IMG/VR virus record: IMGVR_UViG_3300017766_004165
Location: 4,655-68,654 of that record
Length of the DNA stretch: 64,000 nt
Source: a virus
Direction: 5' to 3' (one strand)
How positions within the stretch are numbered: position 1 is the stretch's first letter; each line of letters opens with the position of its first letter. The notes beneath the pieces were generated by a model. That model was given only the letters and a program-made list of their open reading frames with translations. It was not told where the DNA came from and did no database searches. A program made the translations under genes and the position numbers. This document shows positions 36,917 to 62,481 of this stretch, in pieces.

Positions 36917-37159
36917 AGCACTGTTTAATTTACCGGGAAACAGTCAAAGCCGTACTTTTCTTTTGTTCAAACGGTTAAAACGCCGTTTCACCAGAGAAAG
37001 CTTAACTGGTGCTTATAAGAGGGTCTCTGGAGATTCCATCATGACCATAATCAGGATGCTCTTGTCCAGCTTTAATAAGGTTATAACACAGCACAAACAT
37101 TGGTACTGCACAAATACTGCAAATTTTTAATACTTCCCAAAACATAATTCTGATTTTAG

Positions 37160-37567
37160 TGGAGATGAGGGGAATCGAACCCCTGTCCAAACAGTGTAAA
37201 GTGCTGATAGTTGTCTTATATGCTTACCCAATTTCTACTGAGAATATCAATTTGCTTTTTAACTGTCTCAAATTGCTAATGGGACATACCATTGTTTTTA
37301 AGGAAAACTATGACAATAAATGTAAACCTTCTGCTAAATTAACTTGTATAGCTTCAAGGTTGATTATGCAAAGCAAAGCTCAGCACCAACTTCTTCTGCC
37401 TCGTAAGACAGAGAGTTAAGAAGAGAATCAATGTTCCCGTTCTCACCAACTGTAATGTTAGATTTCTCTACATTTGTTTTTGAGTAACATTCGTTAAGGA
37501 AGTATAATACTCATCCTTCCTGCATACCTATCAATCCTATTCATTGCTGTCAAATCCGAGCATCCCC
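37160..37567 (-). ncRNA. ssrA: tmRNA-like gene (ssrA)
   Basis: The 3' end has T-arm AGGGG-TTCGATT-CCCCT followed by CATCTCC-A. About 400 nt upstream on the same strand, GGGGATGCTCGGATTTGACAG matches the tmRNA 5' consensus GGGGxUGAUUCUGGAUUCGACGG and pairs 7/7 with the 3' CATCTCC. An internal frame GGT GAG AAC... (tag starting G-E-N, ending ...CFA then TAA) is a possible tag ORF. Confidence 0.5.
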
Positions 37568-37570
37568 AGG

Positions 37571-37807
37571 TTAAATTGAGTGTCTGCCTATTTGACGATA
37601 ACACTTATTAATTTCTTGTTCAAGTTCTACTTTTCTATTTCTTAACCCTTTTTGTAACATTTCTTGTTCAAACTCTGGCAAAGCAAAATATTTATGATTA
37701 GGCTTTTTGAATTCCTGCTGAGTTGTTACTACTTGTTGAAGTTCTATTAAACACTTTTCACGTATTTTTATATACTTTTCAACAATTTCTTGTTTTGTTG
37801 GTTGCAT
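37571..37807 (-). CDS. hypothetical protein
   Basis: 78-aa ORF ending 4 nt before the tmRNA 5' end. Confidence 0.3.
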   Translation of the reverse strand: MQPTKQEIVEKYIKIREKCLIELQQVVTTQQEFKKPNHKYFALPEFEQEMLQKGLRNRKVELEQEINKCYRQIGRHSI

Positions 37808-38277
37808 AAAAATTGGTTTTATTAAGAAATGATCTTCCAGTGCGTTTTAATAATATCTTCTTCTATCTGCCTTTCTGTGTATGAAAAATTCTCCTCTATT
37901 GTGTCAAAATCTCCTATTTTAGATCTGAAATAAACTTGTTTTTCTTCATCAAAATACACAATTTTAAATTGAATGTTTTCATTAGTTGCACTAAAGATTT
38001 TACCTACGAATCCATGTTGTTGCTTTTTTGAACCTGTAATTTTGAGTTTTAACATAAAAATTTATTAATTCTCAACTAAAGAGTTTCTTACCCTTTTACT
38101 TACCTGCTTATCTTTAGTCAGCGGACTTAAGGAATTGTCCCTTAAATCATAACTATTAATACGAGTTTCTGTGATGAGATCCGTAGGGCATCACATACAA
38201 GGATACAGGTTACTCTTTAGATGAGAAATTAAAATAGGAAGTTGCAAATTTAGTGTTTCAGGATGAAACAACCAAAT

Positions 38278-39030
38278 TTAATTTATCTTTTTTCTTCTTT
38301 GATACCATTTTCTGTTTCTTTCCATTTCCAGCTCTTTTTCAAGATCTTTCACTTTTTGCTCCAAAGTTCTGGTATCTTTGTCTGTTTTGAAGGCTTCAAA
38401 ATCTTCTTCAAGCTTTTTATAATCTTTAATGAAAGCTTCATTAAGATCTTTGATTTGTTCTTCATACTTAGCTATAAGATCTTTTTTGGCCTTTTCTTGG
38501 TTGATCTGAGCATGAGTAACAGTATCATTTAAAGCGGAAAGCTGCTTTTTGTAACCATCAATTTCACTAGCAACCCTTTGTTCAACTTTCTGGCTAATAT
38601 CTGCCAGCACATCATCAAAGTTTATGTACTCTGTGGTTGTAACAGTTTCCATTTCAGGAGTTGAGTTAATAGGAGAATTGAATTTGTATCTTTCCAATAA
38701 GGCAGCTATTTCTTCCACAGCGTAATGAGAATGTCTTTCATGACCATCTGACCTAACTTTATAATAAATGGTTTGAGCTAATTCTCTAAAACGGCCATCA
38801 TAACGTCCTTTAACATGAGTGTTCATGTTCATGTGAAATTCATAACTGACCGTAGGTTTTGGTATTTGTTTTTCAATTACCTTAACTGTTCTCTTATCAG
38901 CTTTTACTTTGACAATTTCTTCATCTTTTTCCTTGATAATTGATTCTCTATCAGTTATCGTAGAATATGCTTTTTTAAGATCTTCCCGAATCTTGTCTAA
39001 TTCAGAGAGATCCATAGTCACTTGTCCCAT
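38278..39030 (-). CDS. coiled-coil hypothetical protein
   Basis: 250 aa, Glu/Lys-rich heptad-like C-terminus. Confidence 0.35.
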   Translation of the reverse strand: MGQVTMDLSELDKIREDLKKAYSTITDRESIIKEKDEEIVKVKADKRTVKVIEKQIPKPTVSYEFHMNMNTHVKGRYDGRFRELAQTIYYKVRSDGHERHSHYAVEEIAALLERYKFNSPINSTPEMETVTTTEYINFDDVLADISQKVEQRVASEIDGYKKQLSALNDTVTHAQINQEKAKKDLIAKYEEQIKDLNEAFIKDYKKLEEDFEAFKTDKDTRTLEQKVKDLEKELEMERNRKWYQRRKKIN

Positions 39031-39056
39031 AATTGTATTAGTATTAAAAGTGATTA

Positions 39057-39644
39057 TTATTTCTTTTTCTTTACTGCTTTTTTAGCTGGAACAGCTCTTT
39101 TGGCTTTTTCAATAACGTGTTTGTTATTGTCTCTTTTTCTAACTTTTTCAAGAATTTCCTGAATACTGTTAGCTTCAATAGAGGCCAATGTTACTTTTCT
39201 GGTAATGTCAGCTCTGTTAAAGGTTCTGCCACTTTCTTTCTTAGGCTTATCAGCAGTTTTTTCTTTTCTAGTTAATTTACCCTGGTTATAGTTATCAATT
39301 AACGTATCCAAAGTAGTTGCTTCAGTTTCCAAAGTACCTTTAGCTTCTTTACCCCAGTAATTAGTAAAGAAATCAGAACCAGTATATTGAAGTTCAATTC
39401 TTGTTTGAATTGATAAACCAGAAAGTTCTTTTCTGATAGCTTTATTTTTAGCAATAAGAAAATCTCTTTCTTTTTTGGTAAGACCATCCTTGTCTTTTTT
39501 CTCAACAGGTGGCTTTTCGGTTAATTTATCTTTTGTACTCCAGAACTTTTTATGTTCTTTTTCCAAAGTATCAACTATGGCTTCTATTTGAAATTCTGTT
39601 AAATTCATTTTGAATTTTGTTTTTGTTTTTGATGATGTTCCCAT
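39057..39644 (-). CDS. Lys-rich basic protein
   Basis: 195 aa, KKK-rich termini. Confidence 0.3.
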   Translation of the reverse strand: MGTSSKTKTKFKMNLTEFQIEAIVDTLEKEHKKFWSTKDKLTEKPPVEKKDKDGLTKKERDFLIAKNKAIRKELSGLSIQTRIELQYTGSDFFTNYWGKEAKGTLETEATTLDTLIDNYNQGKLTRKEKTADKPKKESGRTFNRADITRKVTLASIEANSIQEILEKVRKRDNNKHVIEKAKRAVPAKKAVKKKK

Positions 39645-39888
39645 TTTCTTTCTTCTGCTTTAGAAGCAAAGACAGGTTTGGCTTTTGGTTGTTTTTCAGC
39701 TTTTGGTAAACTGTTTTCTTTTTGAAGTTGGGTCGCCAATTTAACCCTTTCTTTCTTAGCTCCTACTCCACTACCGAATCTGAGATCCAATTTTTGAATT
39801 TTTTGTTGAGTAGTGAGTTTTTTATGCTCAGAATTGCGTTCCTGGGCTTCTTTTTGCCTGGTTTCTAAATTCTTCATTGCTTTATTTT

Positions 39889-40608
39889 TTAAGGGTTTTT
39901 ACTTGGTTGTACTTCTTGCACAGTTGAAGCATTGATCAGTTTAGGAAGTATTTTAAACATTCCTGTTTTCTTTTTAGGAGTTGGTACTGAAGTTACTGCT
40001 ACTGAAGCAGGAACAATAGGATTTGAAGCTGTATGTCCATTTCCTCTTAAAATATGAGACATTTGTTGCTTCATGGCATCTTCCTGAGAAGTTCTTTCAT
40101 TAATATAATAATGAGGAACTTGAGGCTCATCCAGCTTATAGTTATCCCAGTCTTTTTTGTACCCTTCATCCAGGTAATTCTGAAGTGAATTGATGTATCT
40201 TTTATGGATTGCATGATAGGTTTGTTCAGAGATTACTTTTTGATTAGTAACTATAAACTTACCATCTTTGATAAAACCTATTCTGTGTTCCCAGGCTGGA
40301 TGTGCTTTTACTTCTTTAACAGCTTCAATGCCATTATCAGGGTCAGCTTCCACACCAGGAACTTCTACAACATTCCACAACTTATGAAAATGTACAAATT
40401 GTGTAACGTCTTGTATCTGGGGTCTTACCAGCAGTGTCCATTCTGAGGTATCCAGAACATCAAAATCACCAACTTTTTTGGTTTCTTTCTTCTTAAATTT
40501 GAAGATTGGTGTTTCTTCTGACATAATGTTTGTATTAGTTGTTAATAATGCGTTCATATCCCTTTTTGATCTTTTCACCCATCTTTTTATTGATGAACTT
40601 ATAAGCAT
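39889..40608 (-). CDS. hypothetical protein
   Basis: 239-aa ORF; the true start is probably the internal Met near 40524. Confidence 0.35.
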   Translation of the reverse strand: MLISSSIKRWVKRSKRDMNALLTTNTNIMSEETPIFKFKKKETKKVGDFDVLDTSEWTLLVRPQIQDVTQFVHFHKLWNVVEVPGVEADPDNGIEAVKEVKAHPAWEHRIGFIKDGKFIVTNQKVISEQTYHAIHKRYINSLQNYLDEGYKKDWDNYKLDEPQVPHYYINERTSQEDAMKQQMSHILRGNGHTASNPIVPASVAVTSVPTPKKKTGMFKILPKLINASTVQEVQPSKNP

Positions 40609-40864
40609 CTTCCAGGGTTTGAAATCCGTGTCTTTTAGTATTTCCAGTAGTATTCATTTTACCATAATGAATAGATACCGTAAAATTTGTTTGCTCCGAA
40701 TTTCCTAATCTGTGTAATTGGATGATATAGAATTTGTTATGACCAGCTTCTTTATGTTCCAATTTTACATGATCTATACCAACATTTCTTTTCTTTTCAA
40801 AGCTCAGTTTAAAACCGAACCCTGAAAAAGTATCAGGTTGGCGTCCAGTCTTTTTTGAGGCCAT
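40535..40864 (-). CDS. WGR-domain protein
   Basis: HNKFYIIQLHRLGNSEQTNFTVSIHYGKMNTTGNTKRHGFQTLEDAYKFINKKMGEKIKKGY fits the WGR pattern (FY.IQL... W/H-G-R/K... KxxKGY). Confidence 0.5.
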   Translation of the reverse strand: MASKKTGRQPDTFSGFGFKLSFEKKRNVGIDHVKLEHKEAGHNKFYIIQLHRLGNSEQTNFTVSIHYGKMNTTGNTKRHGFQTLEDAYKFINKKMGEKIKKGYERIINN

Positions 40865-41594
40865 ATTCTTCTTTTAGTTTATTTAATAATGTGACGACTA
40901 ATCTTTCTCTTTTAGGATGAAATCCTGTTTCTGGGAATTCAATGTAAAACAAACAACCCAGATTTTTCTTAGAACGAGCAAGCATTGTTCCTCCTACAAG
41001 CTGAATCAATCCTACTAAATGAGTAGCCTCTGAGTTAGATTTGGCCCATCTTATAAAATTGTACACTTGTTGATATTCTTCATCAGTTTGTTTTAGAATA
41101 CCTGATGCTAATGCTTGAACATAATCATTATCCTTCTTGTACTTCATTTCAGGATACTTATCATTATACTTACAATCATCAAACATGACCCATTGAACAT
41201 ATCTGTATAAGTAAGCAGGTATTCTTGGTAATTTTGGCAGAACTTCATCAACAAACCAGTTAGATTGATCTATTCTAGCTTGTATAGTAACATTGATAGT
41301 TTCTGCATTATCAATATCATAACCATTACCACTGTTATTTATAAAGACTGTAAGATTGTGCTTATCATCTCCTGTGGTAATGTCAAAATGTCCCTGCTTC
41401 TGAAGATGCTCAATCGCCTTCCTAATGCTAATGGGTGCATAGGGCGATCCATCAACGGTAAGCGATTCTTTTTCTTCTGGTACAGATTGCTGGACTTGAG
41501 GTTGAGCTTTAGTGTTTGCTTGTTTTGGTTTGGCACTAGTGCGCTTCTTCTTCCTTGTTTTTGAAGCTGAATTAGGTATTCTTCTTGTTCCCAT
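40833..41594 (-). CDS. hypothetical protein with a basic N-terminus
   Basis: 253 aa; N-terminal KTRKKKRTSAKPK. Confidence 0.35.
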   Translation of the reverse strand: MGTRRIPNSASKTRKKKRTSAKPKQANTKAQPQVQQSVPEEKESLTVDGSPYAPISIRKAIEHLQKQGHFDITTGDDKHNLTVFINNSGNGYDIDNAETINVTIQARIDQSNWFVDEVLPKLPRIPAYLYRYVQWVMFDDCKYNDKYPEMKYKKDNDYVQALASGILKQTDEEYQQVYNFIRWAKSNSEATHLVGLIQLVGGTMLARSKKNLGCLFYIEFPETGFHPKRERLVVTLLNKLKEEYGLKKDWTPT

Positions 41595-41784
41595 TGGCTC
41601 ATAATTTAAAAATTTTAAAAAATCTATTAATGCTTCGTTGATGAATGGTCACCTCAGCATTAATAGATCATTCACTAATACAAAACTAACAAAATAGTTT
41701 GAGAAGGGTATTCGCCTATACGAACCTGGTGATCGGAAACTCTCCGATGTCCTCCTCAAATTAGCATTTAAGCTAACTTATTCG

Positions 41785-41858
41785 TGGGGCTGCTAAGACT
41801 CGAACTTAGGACTCCCACATTAAAAGTGTGGTACTCTAACCAACTGAGTTACAACCCC
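41785..41858 (-). tRNA. tRNA-Lys (anticodon TTT)
   Basis: GGGGTTG acceptor, D-arm ACTC-AGTTGGTTA-GAGT, anticodon arm CCACA-CTTTTAA-TGTGG, T-arm CTAAG-TTCGAGT-CTTAG. Confidence 0.75.
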
Positions 41859-41870
41859 GAAAATGGTGAG

Positions 41871-41944
41871 TGGGCTGTGGTAGACTCGAACTACCAACCT
41901 CCTGAGTATCAGTCAGGGACTCTAACCAATTGAGCTAACAGCCC
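41871..41944 (-). tRNA. tRNA-Ile (anticodon GAT)
   Basis: GGGCTGT acceptor, anticodon arm CCTGA-CTGATAC-TCAGG, T-arm GGTAG-TTCGAGT-CTACC. Confidence 0.75.
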
Positions 41945-41948
41945 AGCC

Positions 41949-42560
41949 TTATGATTCTTTAAGCTTCTTTATAAGATGTTTAGCCATTGGTTTCATTTCA
42001 GATAATTCCATTAGAGCCAAAATAGGTGCTACTGTCTCTAAATTAAAATTAACTAAAGTTCTACCTGAAGCTTTGTCATTAAAAGTATCACAATCTGAAG
42101 GATCAGAAAACACATAATAGTTTCTACAAGCTGATGGTCTTACTGGATAAATGCTACAAGAGTTATATTTATCCAAGAACACACATCTTCTATGTGGAGA
42201 TAAAATGTATTCTTTATCATCCTTAATAAGAGCTTGTTTCTCAAGTAGTTCTAATTCTTTAGGTTCAAATTCTAAACCTTGCTCTTTCATATATTCAAGA
42301 ATAGTAATTATTTCCCATTCCATAGTTGCTACTTGAATATAACAACAATGAGCGCAGCCCTTTTTACAAGATGGCTGGTCTTTGTTAACAAAAGAGTTTT
42401 TATTGATGTCATCAATTACATCATACATAGCTAAAACTTTTTCTGCAATAGGCTCATTATTACTGAGTTGAGTTATATAGCTACTCTTTGCATAATTTAA
42501 AAAATTTGCTTGATCGTTAGAAAACTCTAAATCTTCATAATTACCTAAAATTTCAGGCAT
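41949..42560 (-). CDS. CxxxCxxCC Fe-S/zinc-binding domain protein (UPF0153/YkgJ-like)
   Basis: CKKGCAHCC cluster plus further conserved Cys residues. Confidence 0.4.
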   Translation of the reverse strand: MPEILGNYEDLEFSNDQANFLNYAKSSYITQLSNNEPIAEKVLAMYDVIDDINKNSFVNKDQPSCKKGCAHCCYIQVATMEWEIITILEYMKEQGLEFEPKELELLEKQALIKDDKEYILSPHRRCVFLDKYNSCSIYPVRPSACRNYYVFSDPSDCDTFNDKASGRTLVNFNLETVAPILALMELSEMKPMAKHLIKKLKES

Positions 42561-42619
42561 AAAAGTAGTTTTAAAAATTTTTAGAAACTTGATTTTCTAT
42601 TTTAATGTGTAATGATTTG

Positions 42620-42693
42620 TGATCCGAACAGGAGTCGAACCTGTAACCTATTGCTTAGAAGGCAATTGCTCTATCCAGTTGAGCTATCAGATC
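42620..42693 (-). tRNA. tRNA-Arg (anticodon TCT)
   Basis: GATCTGA acceptor, D-arm GCTC-AACTGGATA-GAGC, anticodon arm ATTGC-CTTCTAA-GCAAT, T-arm ACAGG-TTCGACT-CCTGT. Confidence 0.75.
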
Positions 42694-42845
42694 AAATTTC
42701 CTCCACCATCCCCCCCGAAGAAGTACGAGTCTACATCTCCCAGAAACACTCTATGAGGTTCATCGTATGCTATGAAACTTACTCCTTCGGCGGGGAGAGG
42801 CTTCGGAAATTCCTTACTTTTTCTAGGAAAAAATAAAGAAAACCA

Positions 42846-43484
42846 TTATCTTCCAGATTGGCCCACGTTCAATGTGCCAATAGAAGCTGCTTTAGCTCTT
42901 TCAACACCTGCAACTCTTTCATCTTCCAAAGCTTTCTTCCAATAACCAACCTGTTCAGTCAGGAATTTAACCTGGCTCTCCAGTTGGGTAATTTTGGCTG
43001 TGTTTTCAGCTTCTTTCTTTTCAAAGGTCATTTTAGCCAGTGCATCAGCATTGTCATGATCTTTCTTCATTGCGGAAGTTGCTGCATTAACAGCTTTGCT
43101 GATGTTTTCAGACATCTTTGTAGTGGCTTCATCCAGAGAATCATGCAGCTCATCCATTTTTGTTTCAAGAATAGCTACCAGCTTATTTCTCTGCAAATAA
43201 TTATCTACAAAAGCTTTCTGATCAGCATCATAAGCTTGCTGAAGCTCAATTTTGTTTTGGGCCACTTTGTTGGTAAGATCCTGCTTTAAAGCACCAATCT
43301 TATCTTCCAGATTTACTACTTCCAGTGTGCCACTGTTCAATGTAGTCTTAAGTTTTTCAACTTCAGGAGCTACTTGTAACAAAGCTTTTACTGCTGCTTC
43401 CATACGTGAAGCTGCTGAACCAATGATGATCTCAGTGGTTTTGTTGCCCTTTTTAGCTGGGACTTTTGCTTGTACTTCTGACAT
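42846..43484 (-). CDS. coiled-coil hypothetical protein
   Basis: 212 aa, Ala/Lys/Glu-rich. Confidence 0.35.
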   Translation of the reverse strand: MSEVQAKVPAKKGNKTTEIIIGSAASRMEAAVKALLQVAPEVEKLKTTLNSGTLEVVNLEDKIGALKQDLTNKVAQNKIELQQAYDADQKAFVDNYLQRNKLVAILETKMDELHDSLDEATTKMSENISKAVNAATSAMKKDHDNADALAKMTFEKKEAENTAKITQLESQVKFLTEQVGYWKKALEDERVAGVERAKAASIGTLNVGQSGR

Positions 43485-43522
43485 TTGTGTGTCGTTTTAG
43501 TATTAATGAATAAAAAATATAG

Positions 43523-43595
43523 CGGAGGAAACATGGATTCGAACCAGTGACACTAGGTGCTTCACACCTATGCTCTACCGCTGAGCTACTCCTCC
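43523..43595 (-). tRNA. tRNA-Phe (anticodon GAA), atypical T-stem
   Basis: GGAGGAG acceptor, D-arm GCTC-AGCGGTA-GAGC, anticodon arm TAGGT-GTGAAGC-ACCTA. The T-stem needs a bulged nucleotide (ACTGG-TTCGAAT-CCAT(G)T) and position 37 is G. Confidence 0.55.
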
Positions 43596-43653
43596 TCCCG
43601 TTTTACTTATCCTCTGAACGAGGGAAAACGGATCGCAAAAAAGAATTCTTAGT

Positions 43654-43724
43654 ATGCCCCAATAGGATTTGAACCTATATCCACCCCTTCAATGGGGCAA
43701 TCCTGGCCATTAGACGATGGGACT
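43654..43724 (-). tRNA. tRNA-like gene, Gln/Glu-type D-arm, aberrant anticodon loop (possibly Gln-TTG or a pseudo-tRNA)
   Basis: D-arm TCGTCTAATGGCCAGGAT resembles Glu/Gln tRNAs; T-arm ATAGG-TTCAAAT-CCTAT. The anticodon region is CCCC-ATTGAA-GGGG (6-nt loop) and the acceptor has an A1-A72 mismatch. Confidence 0.4.
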
Positions 43725-43791
43725 CAGGGCTTTTAACAACCATCAACTGTTAGCTCATGGCTCAAAAACCCAATCACAAGAAAAGCTTGTG

Positions 43792-44088
43792 TTACTTCCT
43801 GGCAATGTAATGCACTCCCTTGAAGCTTAATTCAGTAAGAGTTTGAGGATTTACGAATCTCACCTCTTTTGCAACTGTGGAATATACTTTAATATACCCC
43901 ATCTTGTTATCTTGTACTTTGTACCTGATACCATTGATCGTATGAGGTTTACCATCTTTGCCAATATGGGTAGTTGTCATAAACTTACCTTTGGTATCAG
44001 CGATGGTTGTGAGCATTTTGGTTCTTGTAGTTTTTACCACAGGAAAACTCTTGTTGTGCTTTGTAAGAGCGGGTTGCTTTTTAGGCAT
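43792..44088 (-). CDS. hypothetical protein
   Basis: 98-aa ORF between tRNAs. Confidence 0.3.
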   Translation of the reverse strand: MPKKQPALTKHNKSFPVVKTTRTKMLTTIADTKGKFMTTTHIGKDGKPHTINGIRYKVQDNKMGYIKVYSTVAKEVRFVNPQTLTELSFKGVHYIARK

Positions 44089-44122
44089 TTTGCTTGATTT
44101 TAATGAATGAATAAATGATAAG

Positions 44123-44195
44123 ATGTCATAGCAAGATTCGAACTTGCGACCTCACCCTAACAATGGGTTGCTCTAACCAACTGAGCTATATGACA
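44123..44195 (-). tRNA. tRNA-Thr (anticodon TGT)
   Basis: Close to E. coli tRNA-Thr overall: TGTCATA acceptor, anticodon arm AACCC-ATTGTTA-GGGTG, T-arm GCAAG-TTCGAAT-CTTGC. U at position 37 is unusual. Confidence 0.65.
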
Positions 44196-44268
44196 TCACT
44201 GAGTTGTGTAGGACACTGTCTTCAACGACAGGCCTACTACTCGCTGTTTTAAAGGAAACAGCTAACTA

Positions 44269-44628
44269 TTATTTTAATGCACCTTCCATAAACTTATCAA
44301 ACTCAATGTCTGATGTATGGTCATATGGATATGGAGTGCTGCATACTCTGGTTTTCTGAATAAGTTTACCTTCTTCACCTGGTTTAATAAGAGCAGCACA
44401 AGAAACACATGGTATAAAACCAGAATTGTATCCCTCTTGTATAGGTGTTACTTTAGATGCTTCTATAATTTGCTGCATATCACCAGTTTTTATTGCATTA
44501 TGTATCTTTTCAGCTCTTTGAATAAAAGCTTGGATACAACATACTGGATAACCAAAAAAGACTCCCATGAGTTGCATTCCTATAAGTTTTGAAGATAAAT
44601 CTTGATCTTCTTGACAGTTTTGACACAT
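44269..44628 (-). CDS. hypothetical Cys-containing protein
   Basis: 119-aa ORF. Confidence 0.3.
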   Translation of the reverse strand: MCQNCQEDQDLSSKLIGMQLMGVFFGYPVCCIQAFIQRAEKIHNAIKTGDMQQIIEASKVTPIQEGYNSGFIPCVSCAALIKPGEEGKLIQKTRVCSTPYPYDHTSDIEFDKFMEGALK

Positions 44629-44641
44629 AATAAAAATTTAG

Positions 44642-44713
44642 TAGCCCCACAGAGAATCGAACTCTGATTTACTGGTCGAAAACCAGTCGTCCTAGCCGTT
44701 AGACGACAAGGCC
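44642..44713 (-). tRNA. tRNA-Glu (anticodon TTC)
   Basis: D-arm TCGTCTAACGGCTAGGACG, anticodon arm ACTGG-TTTTCGA-CCAGT, T-arm CAGAG-TTCGATT-CTCTG. The acceptor is rich in G-U pairs. Confidence 0.6.
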
Positions 44714-46973: not shown

Positions 46974-47456
46974 TTAAACTTTTGAAAGATAAACGTAGGC
47001 TTTGTGGTATTTTTCAATACGAGCAAAGTCAGCTTTGGTTAATCCTTTTAACCTGAAGGGTTGCGAATTATGTTCTAAATCAGCCATTTTTACGGCCCTC
47101 GCATCTTCATTTGTGGATATTTCTGCAATATACTCTTCATATGTTTTTACAGTTGGATCATGCGTAAGCAACATTAAAGGTATTATAATAGCATCACCAA
47201 AACCTTTTCTTCTCAGGTCTGCAAAATCCCAATCAGTGTCTTCTACTAAATCATGTAAAATTCCGATAATTCTACGTGTATCAGTAGTTTGTTTATCCAT
47301 AACATAAAGACAATGAAGGATATATGGCTCTCCTGATTTGTCCAGCTTATCTTTAAAAGCTTTAGCAACAATGCTAATAGCATGAGCTAATTGCTTTTTT
47401 GAGGACATGATCTTTGGTTTTAACGTGAACGTATATGAGATCCAGGTTCGTTGCAA
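46974..47456 (-). CDS. RelA/SpoT-family HD-domain (p)ppGpp hydrolase (small alarmone hydrolase, Mesh1-like)
   Basis: SGEPYILHCLYVM, GILHDLVEDT and VKMADLEHN parallel SpoT segments GEPYITHP, LLHDVIEDT and IKLADRTHN. The probable start is the internal Met (MSSKK, about 47408). Confidence 0.65.
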   Translation of the reverse strand: MQRTWISYTFTLKPKIMSSKKQLAHAISIVAKAFKDKLDKSGEPYILHCLYVMDKQTTDTRRIIGILHDLVEDTDWDFADLRRKGFGDAIIIPLMLLTHDPTVKTYEEYIAEISTNEDARAVKMADLEHNSQPFRLKGLTKADFARIEKYHKAYVYLSKV

Positions 47457-47788
47457 GAAGTTTTCAATACAATGTTAAGATCTTCTTTATTATAGACATA
47501 TTCTTCCTGGAATAAGTCTTTATAATAAGATTTGAATTTTGAAATGTCTTCTTCAATTGTCTTAGTGAAAGTTTTACTAACACGAAGACTATCAATTGTT
47601 TCCCACCAAGAATCTTTATCACTTTTAAGATACTTTTTAATAAAAACCTCTGGCTGGTGATCATCAAGATTTTTTTGAAGTCTTGCAATCTGTAATTTGA
47701 AAGCATTTTTCAAATTTACAACTTTTTTATCTATTTCTGGTGTAAGCTCTGAAGCAGCTTCAAGAAATAAATTTTTAATATCTTTCAT
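47420..47788 (-). CDS. hypothetical protein
   Basis: 122-aa ORF. Confidence 0.3.
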   Translation of the reverse strand: MKDIKNLFLEAASELTPEIDKKVVNLKNAFKLQIARLQKNLDDHQPEVFIKKYLKSDKDSWWETIDSLRVSKTFTKTIEEDISKFKSYYKDLFQEEYVYNKEDLNIVLKTSCNEPGSHIRSR

Positions 47789-47867
47789 TATCTTGGTTTT
47801 AATAATTTAAAAATAAAGCTGCATTAAAATTAATCAATGCAGCTTTTATTACAAATTTAAATCTTGT

Positions 47868-48563
47868 TTAGAAATTCACACCAGCAGTAGAGCCAGAGCT
47901 TGAGGATACAGACTGAGAAACAACTCCCATCTGTTTTCTGATCTCTGATGCACTGTTGCCTACTGTTACCAGACATTTAGTGTGATCCAGGCCCATTTCA
48001 GTACAAGCTTCCTGGAAATAATGTGGTTGACCCACACCCAGCATATTGATTGTAAATGAACTGGCCCAGGCTTCATTACGTCTGAGATCTTCAACGAGCT
48101 TTTTGATCTTTGTTGCTGCACCACTGGATGATGAATTATCTTCACCATCAGTTGATATGAAAATGGCTGTTCTCACATCAATACCCTGTTCTTCAAGATC
48201 TTTTCTGTACGCAATTGCGTGTTCAAGACCTTGTAATACAGCATCATACAATGCTGTACCTCTGCCGGTATTATGCACATCAAAATAATCATCCTGCACA
48301 TTCAGGATAGGCATAAAGCCTGATTTATGTTCTACTTTCTCACAAAAAGTGATTGCTTTTACAACAATATCATCTTTTCTGTGAGAGTTTTTAAGATCCT
48401 GGATGAATACATCTTTGGCAATAGTATTCATAGTTGTTTCATATGAACTAATGCTGGGAGATACGTCATTAATGACAATAAACATAACTACCATAGATGT
48501 CATATTAGCCAAAGAATTAGGATCAAAGTTTTGGCTGTTATTAAAGTTTTGGAAACCTTCCAT
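47868..48563 (-). CDS. VWA-domain protein
   Basis: IVINDVSPSI (DxSxS MIDAS) and FISTDGEDN (TDGxxN) motifs. Confidence 0.45.
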   Translation of the reverse strand: MEGFQNFNNSQNFDPNSLANMTSMVVMFIVINDVSPSISSYETTMNTIAKDVFIQDLKNSHRKDDIVVKAITFCEKVEHKSGFMPILNVQDDYFDVHNTGRGTALYDAVLQGLEHAIAYRKDLEEQGIDVRTAIFISTDGEDNSSSSGAATKIKKLVEDLRRNEAWASSFTINMLGVGQPHYFQEACTEMGLDHTKCLVTVGNSASEIRKQMGVVSQSVSSSSGSTAGVNF

Positions 48564-48646: not shown

Positions 48647-49435
48647 TTATACCTTATCGCTTTTCAGGACAGTAACACCCTGCTTTACAGCATCAGCATA
48701 CATACCATCTACATAATTGTAGAAGTCCTGGGGTAATCCAACTACATTGCTCATACAGTCTTCCAGCACTACAATTTTACTTGCAAGCTGAGGAGCTATT
48801 TGAAGCATTTGTCTCAGGGAATTGGCAACACAATGGGTTCTGGCTTGTCCAGCTAAATATACCACATCATGTGCATTCAGGGTTTGAAATACACCCTGGT
48901 TCACCTGTGTTGACGGATCTTCATTCAACGGCACATTGGCTCTGAAAATACCAAAATGCTCAGTATAAGGATTTACACCTTTATTGATGAAATTTACCCA
49001 TTTAAGGTTCTTATTCATCCATTCACGAAGGGCTGCAAAAAACATGGGATGCAAAGCCTGTCCTTCAGTACCAATCAGACAATGTTCTGGCCATATTGTA
49101 TGCTTAAATTCACCATTAGCTTCCAGGGCTTGCACATATTTTAATGATCTTGCTGGGTCAATTCTGGCTACATATCTGCCATTTAAAATATCATCTGAGG
49201 ACATTTGTGTAAATATGTCAACAGAGTCTCCATTTGGTTTTTCCCACCAGCTTGGGTGAGATATATCCAGTGAATAATGTGAGTCGAGAGAAGCAAATAT
49301 CGTAGTAGGGTTAATCTTTTTGATAAATGCTGCAATACGCTCAGTGTCTTTTACTGCTCCAGGTACAGACAATGCTGCACCAGAAATGTCATGAAAGTCA
49401 TTTTGACCGTCAATGACGAGAAGGACGCTTTTCAT
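48647..49435 (-). CDS. isochorismatase-family hydrolase, PncA-like nicotinamidase
   Basis: LLVIDGQNDFHDISGAALSVPGA parallels PncA ALIIVDVQNDFCEGGSLAV; candidate catalytic Cys in ARTHCVANS (compare ATDYCV). Confidence 0.55.
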   Translation of the reverse strand: MKSVLLVIDGQNDFHDISGAALSVPGAVKDTERIAAFIKKINPTTIFASLDSHYSLDISHPSWWEKPNGDSVDIFTQMSSDDILNGRYVARIDPARSLKYVQALEANGEFKHTIWPEHCLIGTEGQALHPMFFAALREWMNKNLKWVNFINKGVNPYTEHFGIFRANVPLNEDPSTQVNQGVFQTLNAHDVVYLAGQARTHCVANSLRQMLQIAPQLASKIVVLEDCMSNVVGLPQDFYNYVDGMYADAVKQGVTVLKSDKV

Positions 49436-49608
49436 AATTTTTTATTGTTTTGTTTTGTAAAGTGATTAGTGAGGATATAAGTCATAAGGAGAATCATATT
49501 CTTCTCCACATTTAGGACAAATATCTGTTAAATCATCTTTATAAATATTAAATGGATGAAATAACATACACCAAATTCTTTTTAAAATATAGTATATAAA
49601 TTTTTTCA

Positions 49609-51228
49609 TCATTTAGTATTTAAAAGATAAAGTGTTTTGTTCTCCAATAACAGAATTCCAGCTTTCGTGTAAAAGAGTCTGCTATCTCTTGTACATATAG
49701 GACATTCAAGCCTGGTTAGAAGCTGAAGGTTCATATAAACATCCACATATCCATCTTCAGGAAGCATGATAGTACCTCCTAATGCAACAGCAAAATGTGG
49801 TAAGTAATCAAGATCTAAGACTTTATGGTTGTTTGCATCTTTTACATATCTTACCTGATATTCAACACTATTTTTTCCTTTGATTTCTAAAGCAACATAT
49901 TCTTTGCAATAAAAACCATCTTTAGTTCCATTTGGAACTGGAATCATAGCATATCTATTCAAATAAGGCACATTAAGATATTTTTGAGAACCAAAATTCT
50001 GGATTAATCCGGTTCTTTTAACAATTGATTTAGCAAATACAGGTGTATTAGTGTTATCTATACCACCACCAAGCTGATTATTAAGATCATAATTCCATTG
50101 TATGTCTCTATCATACTCTATTACAGTTAGAAATCCATTATTGTAATAGAATATAGGATTATGCAAAACATACATCTTGCCTGTTTGTGAGAATAGATCG
50201 TCTCCTACTCTAATGGCATGATTACCACTATTACTAGGAAACATTTCATCACAATCAAAGCGTTTAACTTCTCTTGTGACTTTCTGTATCTTAGCTTCAT
50301 GTAAACACCATGTAATACCAGCTTTAATAGCTATATACTCATCACAAACATGAATGTCTGTAATATTATCGTATAAAGCTCTGATAGACAAAGCATTAGA
50401 TGTGGTTACTTGCTGTTTTATAACAGTTGATACAGGCACATGAACACCTGAAAGACTAACTAAGTATCTTCTACCACTATTGAAAATATCACTGAATTGT
50501 TTAAGCAAATCACCAGTGGGAGCTTCATATAATGGTGGAATTTTAATACCAGTTATTTTACTGAGTATAGATTTATGAGCTTTAACTCTCATTTCCAGGG
50601 ACTCTTTATTACCAGGTACAACCCATTTATAGGGATGACAAAATGTTGTAGTCCAAAATGCTAATACATCATAAGCATAGACATCAGTTTGTTCATTAAT
50701 AGCAGTCGTAGTCCAATCTCTTATGTCATCTAATAGAACACCACTATGGGTATTTGTTGGAGTTTGAAAACTGTCTACATCCACAAAGATTATATCTCCT
50801 TGTGTATTAAAGAACAAATTATATTGGTTAAGATCACCAACCACAATTTGATGATTATGTATGTGTTCTAAAGCCATTTTAAGCTTGGTCATTATCTTGA
50901 ATTTCAATGCTTTATCAATATTATTTGCTCCACAAAATCCTTTATTAAAGAGATTGTTGAACAAAAAATACTTATTAAAGTCCACATATTGCATATCAAA
51001 ACCTATAACTTTGAGTGTTTTGTTGATATAAATATCAATAGGTTTAATAAACATTGGCCCTAATGTAGATAATGTAACCAAATGATCTGCAAATTTACTG
51101 TCTCTGAGCTTGTGGTACACTTTAACCACTTTGTTTTTGTCTGAAGGATGCTCAAATATTTTCCCTTCACCACCAGCAGCAATCTCTCGGTGCTTAGTGA
51201 AATCTGACACATTAGCTGTCTTTACCAT
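49609..51228 (-). CDS. Ser/Thr protein kinase-like protein
   Basis: Gly-rich loop AAGGEGKIF followed by KVVKVY; catalytic-loop-like HNHQIVVGDLNQYNLFF; DFG-like FVDVDSF; 539 aa. Confidence 0.5.
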   Translation of the reverse strand: MVKTANVSDFTKHREIAAGGEGKIFEHPSDKNKVVKVYHKLRDSKFADHLVTLSTLGPMFIKPIDIYINKTLKVIGFDMQYVDFNKYFLFNNLFNKGFCGANNIDKALKFKIMTKLKMALEHIHNHQIVVGDLNQYNLFFNTQGDIIFVDVDSFQTPTNTHSGVLLDDIRDWTTTAINEQTDVYAYDVLAFWTTTFCHPYKWVVPGNKESLEMRVKAHKSILSKITGIKIPPLYEAPTGDLLKQFSDIFNSGRRYLVSLSGVHVPVSTVIKQQVTTSNALSIRALYDNITDIHVCDEYIAIKAGITWCLHEAKIQKVTREVKRFDCDEMFPSNSGNHAIRVGDDLFSQTGKMYVLHNPIFYYNNGFLTVIEYDRDIQWNYDLNNQLGGGIDNTNTPVFAKSIVKRTGLIQNFGSQKYLNVPYLNRYAMIPVPNGTKDGFYCKEYVALEIKGKNSVEYQVRYVKDANNHKVLDLDYLPHFAVALGGTIMLPEDGYVDVYMNLQLLTRLECPICTRDSRLFYTKAGILLLENKTLYLLNTK

Positions 51229-51907
51229 AACTTACAATTGTGAGATCATCAGTTAATGAAAACTTATCTCTTTTAATAAGATTCCACATACGTTCAAGAT
51301 AATTCTTGCTTGTAGGTGGATGGAATAACAGCTTATTCGGATCAACAGTAGCATTTTGTTGCATAGCACTTCTACTAATCCTGGTAATACCATCAGAACA
51401 TATCATAAATCTCTCTACATCATAATATGTCATAGAAGGATATTTCTTTAGATATTCATCAAAATCAGTAGGATTTTTATAAATATGATAACCTAGATAA
51501 TCAGGAGTATTATTTTGATCAACAATATATTCCACATCATTAATGTAATAATAACCATCACCAAATACTCTGATATTCAAAATATTATCAATTTTATTAT
51601 AATGAAAAAGTATAACCGTAGCTAAAAGATTCATTTCTTCAAGACCAAGAACTCCAGATAGAGCTAATAACCTCAATTTCATTTCTCTTAAAACATTATC
51701 ATTTACACTATTTCCACTTGCTACTTGTTCAAAAGCATAGCAATATGCTTGAGAAGCAAAATGAGATTTAATACCAGTACTACATCCATCAGATATAATA
51801 CCATCTATAAAATTCTCATTTTCAACAACTAATACACTGTCTTCACATGAATTGTGATGGTCAGCTCTGACATTTAAGGTTGCTATCATTTTTCTATGAT
51901 TTGCCAA
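51212..51907 (-). CDS. PP2C-like Ser/Thr phosphatase
   Basis: EDSVLVV, ISDGCSTG (compare DGHGG), FGDGYYY and CSDG resemble PP2C/SpoIIE metal-binding motifs; overlaps the kinase gene by 17 nt. Confidence 0.45.
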   Translation of the reverse strand: MANHRKMIATLNVRADHHNSCEDSVLVVENENFIDGIISDGCSTGIKSHFASQAYCYAFEQVASGNSVNDNVLREMKLRLLALSGVLGLEEMNLLATVILFHYNKIDNILNIRVFGDGYYYINDVEYIVDQNNTPDYLGYHIYKNPTDFDEYLKKYPSMTYYDVERFMICSDGITRISRSAMQQNATVDPNKLLFHPPTSKNYLERMWNLIKRDKFSLTDDLTIVSYGKDS

Positions 51908-52227
51908 CTGTTTGATGTATAAGTTTTTTTGATTCTTTTTTTAAATTCCACCACATTATTTGATTTCTTTTTCTTTGTTTTACTCCAGGGCCAGGGTTTA
52001 TATTCAATAATAGAATCATCAGTGATTTCATTTATATCATATGTACCTGTATCTAAAGATAAACCTAATTGTGATGCTTCACCGGTTACTTTAATCCAAC
52101 CATCAGGACTTATTTCAATTTCAACATTATAGTGTTTATGGTATGTACTAATAGCTGTACTATCAATAATTAACTGGCCTTTATTTGATTGAATATCAGC
52201 TACTTCAAAAAATTTGTTTTTCATCAT
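51886..52227 (-). CDS. possible FHA-like small protein
   Basis: LIIDSTAISTYHKHYNVEI...DGWIKVTGEASQLGLSLDTG loosely follows the FHA pattern (SxxH ... G..NGT); weak. Confidence 0.25.
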   Translation of the reverse strand: MMKNKFFEVADIQSNKGQLIIDSTAISTYHKHYNVEIEISPDGWIKVTGEASQLGLSLDTGTYDINEITDDSIIEYKPWPWSKTKKKKSNNVVEFKKRIKKTYTSNSWQIIEK

Positions 52228-52445
52228 GATTCTTTTAGATGATTGGTAATTTTGATAGTAAAAACACTATTTCTTTTTAATAGGTTTTTTAGACAAAGCT
52301 TTTGTTTTTGTTATGGTTAAAGAAGATTGTGAAACTTCATTATCTTCCATTTTATCCCAAAACAAAGTTTCAGCACCTTTTTTACTAGAAGCTGTTACTT
52401 TAGCACTAAAGGTTGCTTTTACGAGATATTCTGATAATTGTGGCA

Positions 52446-52916
52446 TTAGCTTTCTTTTAAATGGTTAGTAATTTCGGTTGTTGATTGAAATCTCTTAATA
52501 TCTGGTATTACAAAATGCTCAGTATTACCACCATATACGATAGCTTTACCACCATATATAGTATCACTATGCTTAAATATTCTTATTAAGCTGTTTTCTT
52601 TACCAGAAATCATTCTGATAGCATCAGACATTTCTGATAACTCATCAAATACCATAACACCAGTTACAGATTTAAGATTATCAACCATATAAGCTCTATC
52701 CATTTCATTAATCAATGGACTTTTCTTTTTATGTATTTGGACAAGCCTATCTGAATCCAAAAACACATATAATTCTTTGCATTGTCTTTTACATTTATTT
52801 AGATACTCAACATGAAGAGGATGTAAAAGATCAAAACAGCCAGATGTAACACCAATAAGATTATTCTCACTGGCTAATACAAACTGACTGAAATCTTCAG
52901 TGTTATAAAATACCAT
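52446..52916 (-). CDS. cytidylyltransferase-like nucleotidyltransferase (HxGH family; NMN/NaMN adenylyltransferase candidate)
   Basis: GVTSGCFDLLHPLHVEYL is a (T/H)xGH motif (GxFDxxHxxH) typical of PF01467 enzymes, including NadD/NMNAT; 156 aa. Confidence 0.5.
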   Translation of the reverse strand: MVFYNTEDFSQFVLASENNLIGVTSGCFDLLHPLHVEYLNKCKRQCKELYVFLDSDRLVQIHKKKSPLINEMDRAYMVDNLKSVTGVMVFDELSEMSDAIRMISGKENSLIRIFKHSDTIYGGKAIVYGGNTEHFVIPDIKRFQSTTEITNHLKES

Positions 52917-53219
52917 AAATAATGATTTAAAAGTTAAAGGGTAGCCATTACAGCTACCCTTATAAGGTAAAAAACTGGGTGAACTGATTCAGTCCAGATA
53001 AACCCTTTTAGTGCTGTTCTCTGGGGAAGCACGTTTTTCATTGTTGGAAACAATATCTTAATATCTTTGTGTAATAGTTATTACTAATACATAAACTACA
53101 TAATCTCTTGTAGAACTAGAATGTACTACTTTATAACCATCTTCCAAATATTTTCCTAATGTTTCTAAAGAGCTTGGATTTCTAGGATCAACTGAAAGGA
53201 CTTTATATTTTTGCATATA

Positions 53220-53723
53220 CTATTTGTTTAATAATTCTGCAACATAATTATTCCATTTTACCTGAGATATTGAATCTCTTGAATGATCAACAGCTTTATC
53301 ATACCATTTTTGCATTGAATCAAGTTTATAACTATATGAATTATATAGATTTATAAGCTCTGATTTTGTTAATGCTTTAGGTAGTTTAATTAATATGCTG
53401 TCTAACTTTATTGACATATAATTTGATATATCAAAGTGTAATTGTTCATGTTGTAGTATTTCCTTTTTAAATCTTGTTTGGCCATGAATATACCACATTG
53501 ATCCTTTCTTATCAAATACAGCATAGGCTCTCCATCCACATGGTCTGCTATTATCTTTATTCATCCATATACCAGTTGATGTAATAGCAGTAGCACCATT
53601 TGGTAATGGTGTAGATACTTGTACAAAATCTGTATATGTAAGTTTCCTATTTTTATTCCATGTAATAGTATTAGGATCATTAATGAATAAAAGCATGAGT
53701 AATAGTAACTTATTCATAATCAA
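53220..53723 (-). CDS. secreted HExxH-motif protein (DUF922-like putative zinc peptidase)
   Basis: Signal peptide MIMNKLLLLMLLF; HEQLH motif in EILQHEQLHFD. Confidence 0.4.
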   Translation of the reverse strand: MIMNKLLLLMLLFINDPNTITWNKNRKLTYTDFVQVSTPLPNGATAITSTGIWMNKDNSRPCGWRAYAVFDKKGSMWYIHGQTRFKKEILQHEQLHFDISNYMSIKLDSILIKLPKALTKSELINLYNSYSYKLDSMQKWYDKAVDHSRDSISQVKWNNYVAELLNK

Positions 53724-53789
53724 TATAATAAACTGTGAATTAAATAATAAAGTAGCCAGGTTTATTATAACCCAGCTACTTTATTGCTA

Positions 53790-54266
53790 CTAATATCTTC
53801 TGCAAAAATCACTCTTTACCAGGCTTAAACGTAAACCTAATCCAACGATGGTTGTCTTCTGTGCGTAGGCAACACCAAATTGTAATTGGGCTTGAGGAAA
53901 TCTTTCCATTGTTTTGTAAGCGTATAAGCTGTACATTGTACTACCTGTATTTAGTGCTTTATTATCACTACTCCTGTAATAATGAGCAGCACCAACAGCA
54001 GGTTGTATGCTCCAATAATCATTGATATTTACAGTATGGCCAATTCTCACATTAAATATAGTACCGTTTCCAACGACAGGGCTAATGTGTGAAATCATAC
54101 CAGCTTGTATATCAATAATTTTGAAGTCATATCCCAGGGATACTTCAGCAGTTGCAGTTTTATTTGTGGAGTAACCTGCTAAACCACCAATATGAAATTG
54201 TGCATTTGATTGTACACTGAATATTGTAAATGCAATAAACAATACCAGGATTTTGATTTGTTTCAT
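53790..54266 (-). CDS. outer-membrane beta-barrel protein (OmpW/PorT-like)
   Basis: Signal peptide ending SNAQ; alternating hydrophobic pattern with aromatic residues; a C-terminal Phe/Tyr-containing strand typical of Bacteroidota OM beta-barrels. Confidence 0.5.
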   Translation of the reverse strand: MKQIKILVLFIAFTIFSVQSNAQFHIGGLAGYSTNKTATAEVSLGYDFKIIDIQAGMISHISPVVGNGTIFNVRIGHTVNINDYWSIQPAVGAAHYYRSSDNKALNTGSTMYSLYAYKTMERFPQAQLQFGVAYAQKTTIVGLGLRLSLVKSDFCRRY

Positions 54267-62270: not shown

Positions 62271-62342
62271 AGCGGGGTAGAGCAGCGGTAGCTCGAAAGC
62301 CTCATAAGCTTTAGGTCGTGAGTTCGATCCTCACTCCCGCTA
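62271..62342 (+). tRNA. tRNA-Met (anticodon CAT; elongator Met or Ile2-type)
   Basis: AGCGGGG/TCCCGCT acceptor, D-arm GAGC-AGCGGTA-GCTC, anticodon arm AAAGC-CTCATAA-GCTTT, T-arm GTGAG-TTCGATC-CTCAC. Confidence 0.75.
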
Positions 62343-62481
62343 CTCCGAGGGTGATCTGGGAATATAAGTGACGTTGGAATACCAGACTTGCGTGTATTTC
62401 TTTTTTCGTAAAAGTAAATATATTTTCTTTACACGACCCTTAGAACACAAAATAGAAACAAATTAAAATAAAATAAAGTCT

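Follow-up and report, generated by a model that had tools for sequence, protein, structure and literature searches.

The DNA analysed here is a 64-kb stretch of phage DNA, in the following called the window (64,000 nt; positions 4,655 to 68,654 of the IMG/VR record IMGVR_UViG_3300017766_004165), and comprises about half of the presumed genome. It has a GC content of about 32% and its content is that of a phage replication/early region, with genes for RecA, a B12-type ribonucleotide reductase, a dUTPase, a family-A DNA polymerase and primase/helicase-like proteins. No nucleotide similarity of the window to INPHARED phages was found. Our analysis focuses on a gene for a nicotinamidase (PncA-like) of 262 amino acids (aa) and on the genes around it. 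The list of open reading frames (ORFs) of the window shows a tight array of genes on the minus strand between 46.9 and 53.0 kb. The best reading is that one single same-strand cassette is present, consisting of a nucleotidyltransferase gene, two small ORFs and the genes for a PP2C phosphatase, a Ser/Thr kinase, the nicotinamidase and a vWA protein with a metal ion-dependent adhesion site (MIDAS). The features are, from high to low position in the window:

52937..52961, minus strand: terminator-like hairpin (stem of 11 bp, then a T-run), shortly upstream of the start of the nucleotidyltransferase gene (pattern match only).
52446..52916, minus strand: predicted nucleotidyltransferase of 156 aa from the HldC/RfaE-domain-II/cytidylyltransferase clade, the accessory first gene of the cassette (Pfam, NCBIfam, PHROG, PDB profile, Foldseek).
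52267..52446, minus strand: ORF of 59 aa without family match and without homolog in related loci.
51886..52227, minus strand: ORF of 113 aa, a variable filler (synteny).
51212..51907, minus strand: PP2C-type protein phosphatase of 231 aa (subthreshold Pfam PP2C_2 match, residue conservation, synteny).
49609..51228, minus strand: Hanks-type Ser/Thr protein kinase of 539 aa (Pkinase matches of the family, PDB profile, residue conservation).
48647..49435, minus strand: "long" nicotinamidase (PncA-like) of 262 aa (profile, fold, residues, ortholog context).
47868..48563, minus strand: vWA protein of 231 aa with a complete MIDAS (residue conservation, Pfam VWA matches of the family, PDB profile).
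47815..47846, minus strand: terminator-like hairpin (stem of 13 bp, then a T-run), immediately behind the stop codon of the vWA gene (pattern match only).

The 3' end of the PP2C gene overlaps the start of the kinase gene. In relatives, the place of the 113-aa ORF between the genes for nucleotidyltransferase and PP2C is taken by another small ORF or is empty. A pattern scan found seven terminator-like sites in 7 kb, compared to 2.2 expected. The hairpin at 52937..52961 likely ends the preceding transcription unit, and the hairpin at 47815..47846 likely closes an operon that extends from the nucleotidyltransferase to the vWA gene. Their location on both sides of this stretch is consistent with one operon, as far as pattern evidence goes. 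A first-pass annotation of the window, made from the sequence alone, had proposed that two NAD-related enzymes are encoded here, a nicotinamidase and a nucleotidyltransferase. The two ORFs were confirmed at 48647..49435 and 52446..52916, on the minus strand.

The nicotinamidase ORF starts with MKSVLLVIDGQNDFHDISGAALSVPGAVKD, as quoted in that annotation, which had assigned the product to the isochorismatase family with a nicotinamidase-type N-terminus and a candidate catalytic Cys. Database searches returned 462 homologs of about 262 aa, and the top 120 of these are 58–100% identical to the phage protein, so that the ORF represents a conserved gene. As a single sequence the protein reached 17.4 bits with the Pfam family Isochorismatase (PF00857, cutoff 27) and 32 bits with the NCBIfam nicotinamidase model PRK11609 (cutoff 174). 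When a profile of 30 homologs was compared to the PDB, it matched nicotinamidases exclusively, namely those of yeast (Pnc1), M. tuberculosis (PncA), P. horikoshii, A. baumannii and Drosophila, and entry 29iv. The AlphaFold (AF2) model (pLDDT 94.7) has the isochorismatase-like alpha/beta fold, and the top 12 PDB matches found by Foldseek were all nicotinamidases (E = 2e-14 to 7e-10).

The alignment to Pnc1 places Asp9, Lys152 and Cys202 of the phage protein on the catalytic residues Asp8, Lys122 and Cys167, and Asp51, His53 and His118 (within WPEHC) on the metal ligands Asp51, His53 and His94. The three metal ligands do not vary in any of the 71 unique sequences from phages and bacteria. The catalytic residues are likewise invariant in these 71 sequences, with one truncated sequence gapped at Asp9 and Cys202. 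An Asp-His-His metal site that includes the His of WPxHC sets nicotinamidases apart from other hydrolases of the isochorismatase family. The family assignment of the first-pass annotation therefore stands: the N-terminus reads as quoted, the catalytic Cys is Cys202, the Asp-Lys-Cys triad is complete and the metal site is intact.

Judged by its predicted fold, by the catalytic residues and metal site, by the profile search and by the context of its orthologs, the 262-aa protein is a nicotinamidase, and by sequence it is to be placed in a divergent long subfamily. It shares with PncA and Pnc1 of known structure (2h0r, 2wt9, 3pl1, 1im5) the isochorismatase-like fold, the Asp-Lys-Cys triad, the Asp-His-His site and the WPxHC motif, and its Bacteroidota orthologs are placed in a PncB/NadE salvage operon. 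Unlike these enzymes, which have 180–235 aa, the phage protein has 262 aa, with an insertion of about 50 residues between the metal loop and WPEHC; it is 13–19% identical to the solved structures, stays below curated model cutoffs, and is genetically locked to a vWA-PP2C-kinase triad. Family-specific motifs, for example TEHFGIFRAN, are strongly conserved in long PncA. Among cultured phages in INPHARED no long PncA was found; the INPHARED entries that have it are three metagenomic records of huge phages and a faecal contig. The nicotinamidases in BFVD were from giant viruses only.

To describe the genetic context of the long PncA, 39 phage loci with a PncA-like gene were examined by iterative profile searches (loci are numbered with L). 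In 33 of them all four genes, for PncA, the vWA protein, PP2C and the kinase, are present, and one more locus is cut by the contig end. A solo PncA gene was seen in the other five, which are divergent and include two giant-virus bins. Directly downstream of the PncA-like gene always comes that for the 231-aa vWA protein. Close relatives have the gene order PP2C-kinase-PncA-vWA, and distant phages (contigs of 32 to 470 kb) the order PncA-vWA-PP2C-kinase. The first-pass annotation had described NAD-related enzymes that flank a kinase module. The nicotinamidase indeed adjoins this module, but kinase, PP2C and vWA protein turned out to be obligate partners of the PncA clade and not a separate insert.

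In six viral loci (L021, L030, L032, L033, L035 and L038; 62–470 kb) genes for PncB and NadE lie beside the four-gene unit, and four of these loci are contigs of more than 200 kb. The largest, L030 (470 kb), has the order PncB-PncA-vWA-PP2C-kinase-NadE-NadD, and NadD is found beside the module in two large phage contigs, L030 and L038. A scan for viral PncB confirmed 379 stretches, and the best 80 of them (L077–L156) were used for counting. Among these best 80, 9–10 have a long PncA, always together with the triad, and 52 have a short canonical PncA within 6 kb, without the triad; members of the clade of the window were not among them. As a side observation, the 52 loci indicate that PncA-PncB pairs are a frequent and little-discussed auxiliary gene set of phages. 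One further contig, L040 (JBATMZ010000124.1, 141 kb), was binned with a Saprospiraceae metagenome-assembled genome and is probably a phage genome; it may hint at the host. It has the order PP2C-kinase-nucleotidyltransferase-PncA-vWA, and its PncA is 75% identical to that of the window.

The same four genes occur in bacteria. Among 37 loci from a bacterial-genome collection, nine have all four genes, eight from Bacteroidales and the phage-like contig L040. In the eight Bacteroidales loci the vWA-PP2C-kinase triad is inserted between PncA and NadE of an NAD salvage operon, as in L042 (a 5.1-Mb contig) with the order NrtR-PncB-PncA-vWA-PP2C-kinase-NadE. The Bacteroidota orthologs of the phage nicotinamidase, which are 41–49% identical to it, sit between PncB and NadE and downstream of an NrtR-like Nudix regulator (association with PncB/NadE in L042, L050, L052, L056, L066, L071 and L072). 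The operon genes were clearly recognised, PncB (nicotinate phosphoribosyltransferase) with 448 bits (cutoff 379) and the NadE (NAD+ synthase) domain with 125 bits (cutoff 64). In NrtR-PncB-PncA-NadE operons of many Bacteroidota the long form is the sole PncA. This location among PncB, NadE and NrtR identifies the long form as the salvage nicotinamidase of these bacteria.

Two copies of a palindrome of about 21 bp, TTTGYGTA-N5-TACRCAAA, are present upstream of the NrtR-like gene in 12 of 12 loci:

L042, L049, L050, L052, L053, L056, L064–L066, L071, L072 and L074: paired palindrome, about 30–120 nt upstream of the NrtR-like gene.

The paired palindromes are presumably the NrtR operator. Two operons that lack the triad contain short fragments homologous to the kinase between PncA and NadE (L060, 1084–1485; L071, 8388–8642). 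These fragments suggest that the vWA-PP2C-kinase insertion was secondarily lost in L060 and L071.

The three partner proteins of the phage nicotinamidase retain the residues that are expected for function. The kinase domain comprises the N-terminal 210 aa or so, and the Gly-loop residues G19/G20 as well as K36, D132, N137 and D150 are conserved. Pfam Pkinase was matched by 12 of 14 family members, and all PDB profile matches were protein kinases. The C-terminal part of about 330 aa is of no recognised fold and gave no family or PDB match; as the C-terminal Cys pair 509/512 is not conserved, the kinase lacks a zinc ribbon. PP2C reached 23.1 bits with Pfam PP2C_2, just under the cutoff of 24, and its metal-binding residues Asp23, Asp40-Gly41, Asp172-Gly173 and Asp220-Asp221 are invariant in 38 sequences. 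The MIDAS of the vWA protein (Asp33-x-Ser35-x-Ser37, Thr103 and Asp139) is also invariant in 38 sequences, with Ser or Thr at position 35. Pfam VWA was matched by 6 of 15 members of the vWA family, and the PDB profile match was the alpha2-delta vWA domain. A Ser-rich C-terminal tail (Ser216, 218, 220 and 223) is conserved in this protein. The PADLOC defence models gave only a weak match of the kinase domain to MkoA (E = 3.5e-5) and none for the vWA protein or PP2C.

This set of proteins resembles the TerY-P triad known from tellurite-resistance loci, CoCoNuT and stand-alone defence systems in its three-gene make-up, the MIDAS, the catalytic residues of phosphatase and kinase, and the operonic linkage. 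It differs in several respects. The C-terminus of the kinase is a domain of about 330 aa and not the zinc ribbon of the classical type or the OB fold of the defence type, the neighbours are genes for NAD salvage enzymes instead of those for restriction, Ter or secretion, and the triad is borne by large phages of the lytic type and matched no PADLOC model.

We favour, with moderate confidence, the view that the region is a phospho-regulated nicotinamide-salvage cassette, with host enzymes doing the later steps. The phage nicotinamidase would deamidate nicotinamide to nicotinate in the infected cell. Nicotinamide is the product of NAD+-cleaving enzymes, which include the TIR, Sir2 and SEFIR defences. 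Host PncB, NadD and NadE would then turn nicotinate back into NAD+. Host enzymes are invoked because the phage provides only the first step within the available sequence: a Pfam scan of the window ORFs of at least 90 aa detected none of the families NAMPT, PncB, NadE, NadD, NadR, Prs and Nudix, in line with the first-pass annotation, which had recognised no NAMPT/NadV or NadE. It had also proposed a search for such genes elsewhere in the genome. This was carried out for about 5 kb beyond each end of the window, but no PncB, NadE, NadD, NAMPT or other NAD gene was found there. The likely host phylum, Bacteroidota, encodes PncB and NadE in the salvage operons examined.

In the favoured model the kinase and PP2C would form a reversible switch based on phosphorylation, with the kinase probably acting on the Ser-rich tail that is conserved in the vWA protein, or on PncA. 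The MIDAS of the vWA protein may mediate an interaction that depends on phosphorylated or acidic residues and gates the enzyme, so that the nicotinamidase would be gated and not constitutive. The signal is likely received by the kinase through its C-terminal domain. As to its origin, the best reading is that the four-gene core arose as a variant of the Bacteroidota NrtR-PncB-PncA-NadE operon and was then taken up by many large phages.

By analogy with the phage NAD+ reconstitution pathways NARP1 (Adps and Namat), NARP2 (Nampt and NMNAT/Nudix) and NARP3 (PnuC and NadR), described in PMC13464706, a role of the cassette against NAD-depleting defences is plausible. Furthermore, "NAD-jumbo phages" of Bacteroidota carry Preiss-Handler pncB-nadD-nadE clusters (PMC11662467). 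What the cassette has in common with these systems are phage genes that act on breakdown products or precursors of NAD+, and the large or jumbo relatives of the module carry PncB, NadE and NadD alongside. In contrast to NARP1–3, the three such pathways described so far, the entry enzyme here is a nicotinamidase. Differences to NARP1–3 and to the NAD-jumbo phages are also that only the first step is present in the available sequence, that a kinase-phosphatase-vWA triad is built in, and that the anti-defence role is proposed by analogy.

Several points weigh against the favoured reading. The PncA-like protein is under the curated cutoffs of both Pfam Isochorismatase and NCBIfam PRK11609. No residue signature, for example a phospho-site, was found that separates triad-linked from unlinked PncA, beyond Ser/Thr52; for this reason PncA does not obviously appear adapted as a kinase substrate, as far as sequence comparison can tell. 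The regulatory model with regard to activity, target and contact is inferred from synteny and motif conservation. If nicotinamide is removed, enzymes that consume NAD could be released from product inhibition, and the phage would not benefit from this. With about half of the presumed genome in view, genes for PncB, NadE or NAMPT could lie elsewhere. Finally, the host NrtR palindrome is absent throughout the window in its loose as well as its strict version, and an ADP-ribose-responsive expression of the cassette is thus unsupported.

The similarity to TerY-P triads allows another explanation, which we consider unlikely. According to this, the locus would be a TerY-P-type conflict module, with the nicotinamidase as an effector that destroys nicotinamide upon a phosphorylation signal. 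Its purpose could be to deny nicotinamide to NARP1 and NARP2 of rival phages, both of which consume nicotinamide (PMC13464706), or to tune Sir2 proteins or ADP-ribosyltransferases that are inhibited by nicotinamide. In its architecture (vWA with MIDAS, PP2C, Ser/Thr kinase) the set corresponds to the TerY-P triad, and modules of the TerY-P-like kind function as anti-phage systems by themselves (PMC11090510). The phage studied here keeps PncA and the triad without PncB or NadE in the window, and a neighbouring (p)ppApp hydrolase gene, described below, fits counter-defence surroundings. The bacterial and six viral loci, however, embed the module among PncB, NadE and NadD, which argues for a flux toward NAD+. 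It also speaks against a conflict module that PADLOC returned only a weak kinase-domain match, and that the kinase has neither the zinc ribbon nor the OB fold of TerY-P.

The favoured reading includes only one NAD enzyme of the phage, while the first-pass annotation had suggested two: the 156-aa protein was taken as a candidate for a nicotinamide mononucleotide (NMN) or nicotinate mononucleotide (NaMN) adenylyltransferase (NMNAT), on account of its size and a GxFDxxHxxH motif. The protein has the C-terminal motif QSTTEI and the motif SGCFDLLHPLH, which fits GxFDxxHxxH and shows HPLH in the place of a strict HxGH, with Leu for Gly. The first His is invariant, and the second is replaced by Gln in the homologs P0140–P0142. 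The NadD signature GxFxPxH/TxGH is absent from the protein, which lacks the Pro of NadD and has Leu where Gly is expected. Genuine phage NadD proteins have GAFDPIHPGH in L030 (TIGR00482 at 1e-29) and GGFNPPHIGH in L038 (TIGR00482 at 1e-27).

The 156-aa protein scored 39 bits with Pfam CTP_transf_like (PF01467, cutoff 21) and 41 bits with TIGR00125 (cutoff 27.7). The best match in NCBIfam was rfaE_dom_II, where the protein reached 67.5 bits and the equivalog cutoff is 181.5; residues 17–153 aligned to positions 9–142 of the 144 positions of this model, which supports membership in the clade and not an equivalog assignment. Glycerol-3-phosphate cytidylyltransferase (GCT) and PPAT followed. Models for NadD, NadR and archaeal NMNAT (TIGR00482, TIGR01526, TIGR01527 and related) gave no match at E <= 0.1. 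The protein belongs to PHROG 7878, which is annotated as HldE type. A profile of 28 sequences matched ethanolamine-phosphate cytidylyltransferase (ECT), HldC, 3glv, GCT and CCT in the PDB. With the AF2 model (pLDDT 86) Foldseek found HldC first, then CCT, 3glv, GCT and FAD synthetase, and the first NMNAT, NadM (2qjo), was at rank 39 (E = 1.6e-4). A profile search of 5.8 billion sequences revealed stand-alone proteins of about 155 aa, named RfaE-II or HldC by their sources, as nearest cellular relatives.

Identity with an NMNAT was consequently rejected, as Pfam, NCBIfam, PHROGs, PDB profile, AF2 with Foldseek and the large sequence search all led to HldC/RfaE-II/cytidylyltransferases. At the family level the protein falls into the heptose-1-phosphate adenylyltransferase/cytidylyltransferase clade, which the first-pass annotation itself had named as an outcome that would exclude its proposal. 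We conclude from sequence and modelled fold that the 156-aa protein is a clade-specific accessory nucleotidyltransferase of the sugar/alcohol-phosphate type and not a recognisable NMN/NaMN adenylyltransferase. It resembles HldC, domain II of HldE, GCT, ECT and CCT in size, fold and the GxFDxxH...STT motifs, and aligns with rfaE_dom_II from end to end. It differs from HldC and HldE domain II by HPLH in place of HxGH and by its score far under the equivalog cutoff, and from the setting of HldC and GCT by the lack of heptose or teichoic-acid pathway genes near its gene.

Only 31 database homologs of the 156-aa protein were found, compared to 462 for the PncA-like protein. Among the loci examined, its gene occurs in the window and in L001, L002, L008, L011, L014 and L040, and in L008 and L040 it lies between the kinase and PncA genes. 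The position next to or inside the module suggests a functional tie to it. A copy with 37% identity is present in the Bacteroides phages DAC19/20/22. In the 10.5 kb examined around the DAC19 copy, no NAD or module genes were found, and the family matches were limited to a UvrD-type helicase, DUF4494 and a weak match to an RNA-binding region. A link between nucleotidyltransferase and HD hydrolase in DAC19 was considered and rejected, as the neighbouring gene is unrelated.

In the light of these data it is improbable that the nicotinamidase and the 156-aa protein together rebuild NAD+ from nicotinamide by a two-enzyme route, with NaMN or NMN being adenylylated by the 156-aa protein. The nucleotidyltransferase gene is part of the same apparent operon and adjoins or lies inside the module in six related loci (including L008 and L040), NMNATs share the superfamily fold, as seen from the NadM match, and versions of the module in jumbo phages include a NadD adenylyltransferase step. 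Best matches to HldC/RfaE-II, GCT, ECT and CCT in sequence, profile and fold nevertheless point elsewhere, as do the failure of all NadD, NadR and archaeal NMNAT models, the absence of GxFxPxHxGH with HPLH and the His-to-Gln exchange in some homologs, the presence of the gene near few module loci, and the DAC19/20/22 homologs without PncA or NAD genes nearby. In addition, the intervening PncB step is not encoded in the window. Of the idea that both enzymes rebuild NAD+ from nicotinamide, what holds is the nicotinamidase together with its link to NAD salvage, and what does not hold is the NMNAT assignment. A combined scenario would see the triad as a dedicated post-translational sensor or switch on nicotinamide salvage in Bacteroidales and a broad set of large phages, and the HldC-like transferase possibly as a non-orthologous pyridine-nucleotide adenylyltransferase in one clade; we put this forward only tentatively.

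That the long PncA is a cysteine amidohydrolase for another substrate, such as NMN, nicotinamide riboside or a nicotinamide-containing signal, is very unlikely: the scores under the curated nicotinamidase cutoffs, the insertion of about 50 aa and family-specific motifs such as TEHFGIFRAN would fit this, but the long form is the only PncA in many Bacteroidota NrtR-PncB-PncA-NadE operons, the pyridine-binding nicotinamidase-type metal site is invariant, and the top structural matches are all nicotinamidases.

Two genes follow downstream of the cassette:

47420..47788, minus strand: ORF of 122 aa downstream of the cassette (synteny).
46974..47456, minus strand: Aph1-like (p)ppApp hydrolase of 160 aa with HD domain (PDB 7smg, PHROG 990).

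The HD protein matched the (p)ppApp hydrolase 7smg with E = 2.9e-22 and PHROG 990 at 6e-44. Its similarity to an alarmone hydrolase suggests a counter-measure against toxins that synthesise (p)ppApp. Both genes adjoin the cassette or the nucleotidyltransferase gene in L001, L002 and L011, but most phages with the module lack them. At 53220–54266 (minus strand), just upstream of the cassette, a DUF922-like protein and a predicted beta-barrel-like protein are encoded, both with signal peptides; DUF922 upstream of the module is kept in L002.

Other features of the window were noted. Ten tRNA genes are located at 36675–44713 (minus strand) and 62271–62343 (plus strand), and one tRNA has an odd 2-base anticodon. 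A phage transfer-messenger RNA with the tag peptide GENGNIDSLLNSLSYEAEEVGAELCFA is predicted at 37159–37567. A second vWA system, unrelated to that of the cassette, lies at 17579–20519 (minus strand). Here a protein of 583 aa, whose centre is of low complexity and rich in Gly, Pro, Asn and Gln and whose C-terminal part has a vWA-like motif DxSGS, adjoins a MoxR-type AAA+ ATPase. The latter matches Pfam bpMoxR of the MoxR-vWA-beta-propeller ternary systems (1e-22). The gene at 4075–4896 (minus strand) encodes a fusion protein in which a dATP/dGTP diphosphohydrolase domain (PF18909, 4e-29) at the N-terminus is joined to another domain; a PurZ-like gene was not seen in the window. Four ORFs with matches to calcineurin-like metallophosphoesterases lie within 6 kb (5627–6304, 8375–9112, 9214–9984 and 10974–11675, minus strand) and adjoin the gene for the B12-dependent ribonucleotide reductase (6346–8193).

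The enzyme class and the idea of NAD salvage by phages are already known. What appears to be new is the fixed coupling of a nicotinamidase to a TerY-P-like phospho-switch in bacteria and phages. A full-text search of the available library found no paper that combines nicotinamidase, vWA, kinase and phage. The report on the NAD-jumbo phages mentions pncA only in passing and a kinase never (PMC11662467), and a systematic survey of viral NAD+/ADP-ribose (ADPr) metabolism never mentions nicotinamidase, PncA or isochorismatase (PMC9503650).

For annotation, our results prevent an erroneous NMNAT label on the 156-aa transferase. They also reveal that nicotinamidase is widespread in large phages of Bacteroidota, and that one clade of it is never alone in phages, its companions being kinase, phosphatase and MIDAS protein. 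Bacterial anti-phage immunity commonly results in the depletion of NAD+. If the triad is indeed a dedicated sensor or switch on nicotinamide salvage, as tentatively put forward above, the phages would have a fourth route of NAD+ restoration during infection, based on the Preiss-Handler pathway and gated by a signal, and TerY-P-type phospho-signalling, known so far from defence loci, would be tied directly to NAD+ homeostasis. If the triad gates salvage, bacteria and phages would offer an example of NAD+ salvage under phospho-regulation, and TerY-P-like triads would gain a functional context.

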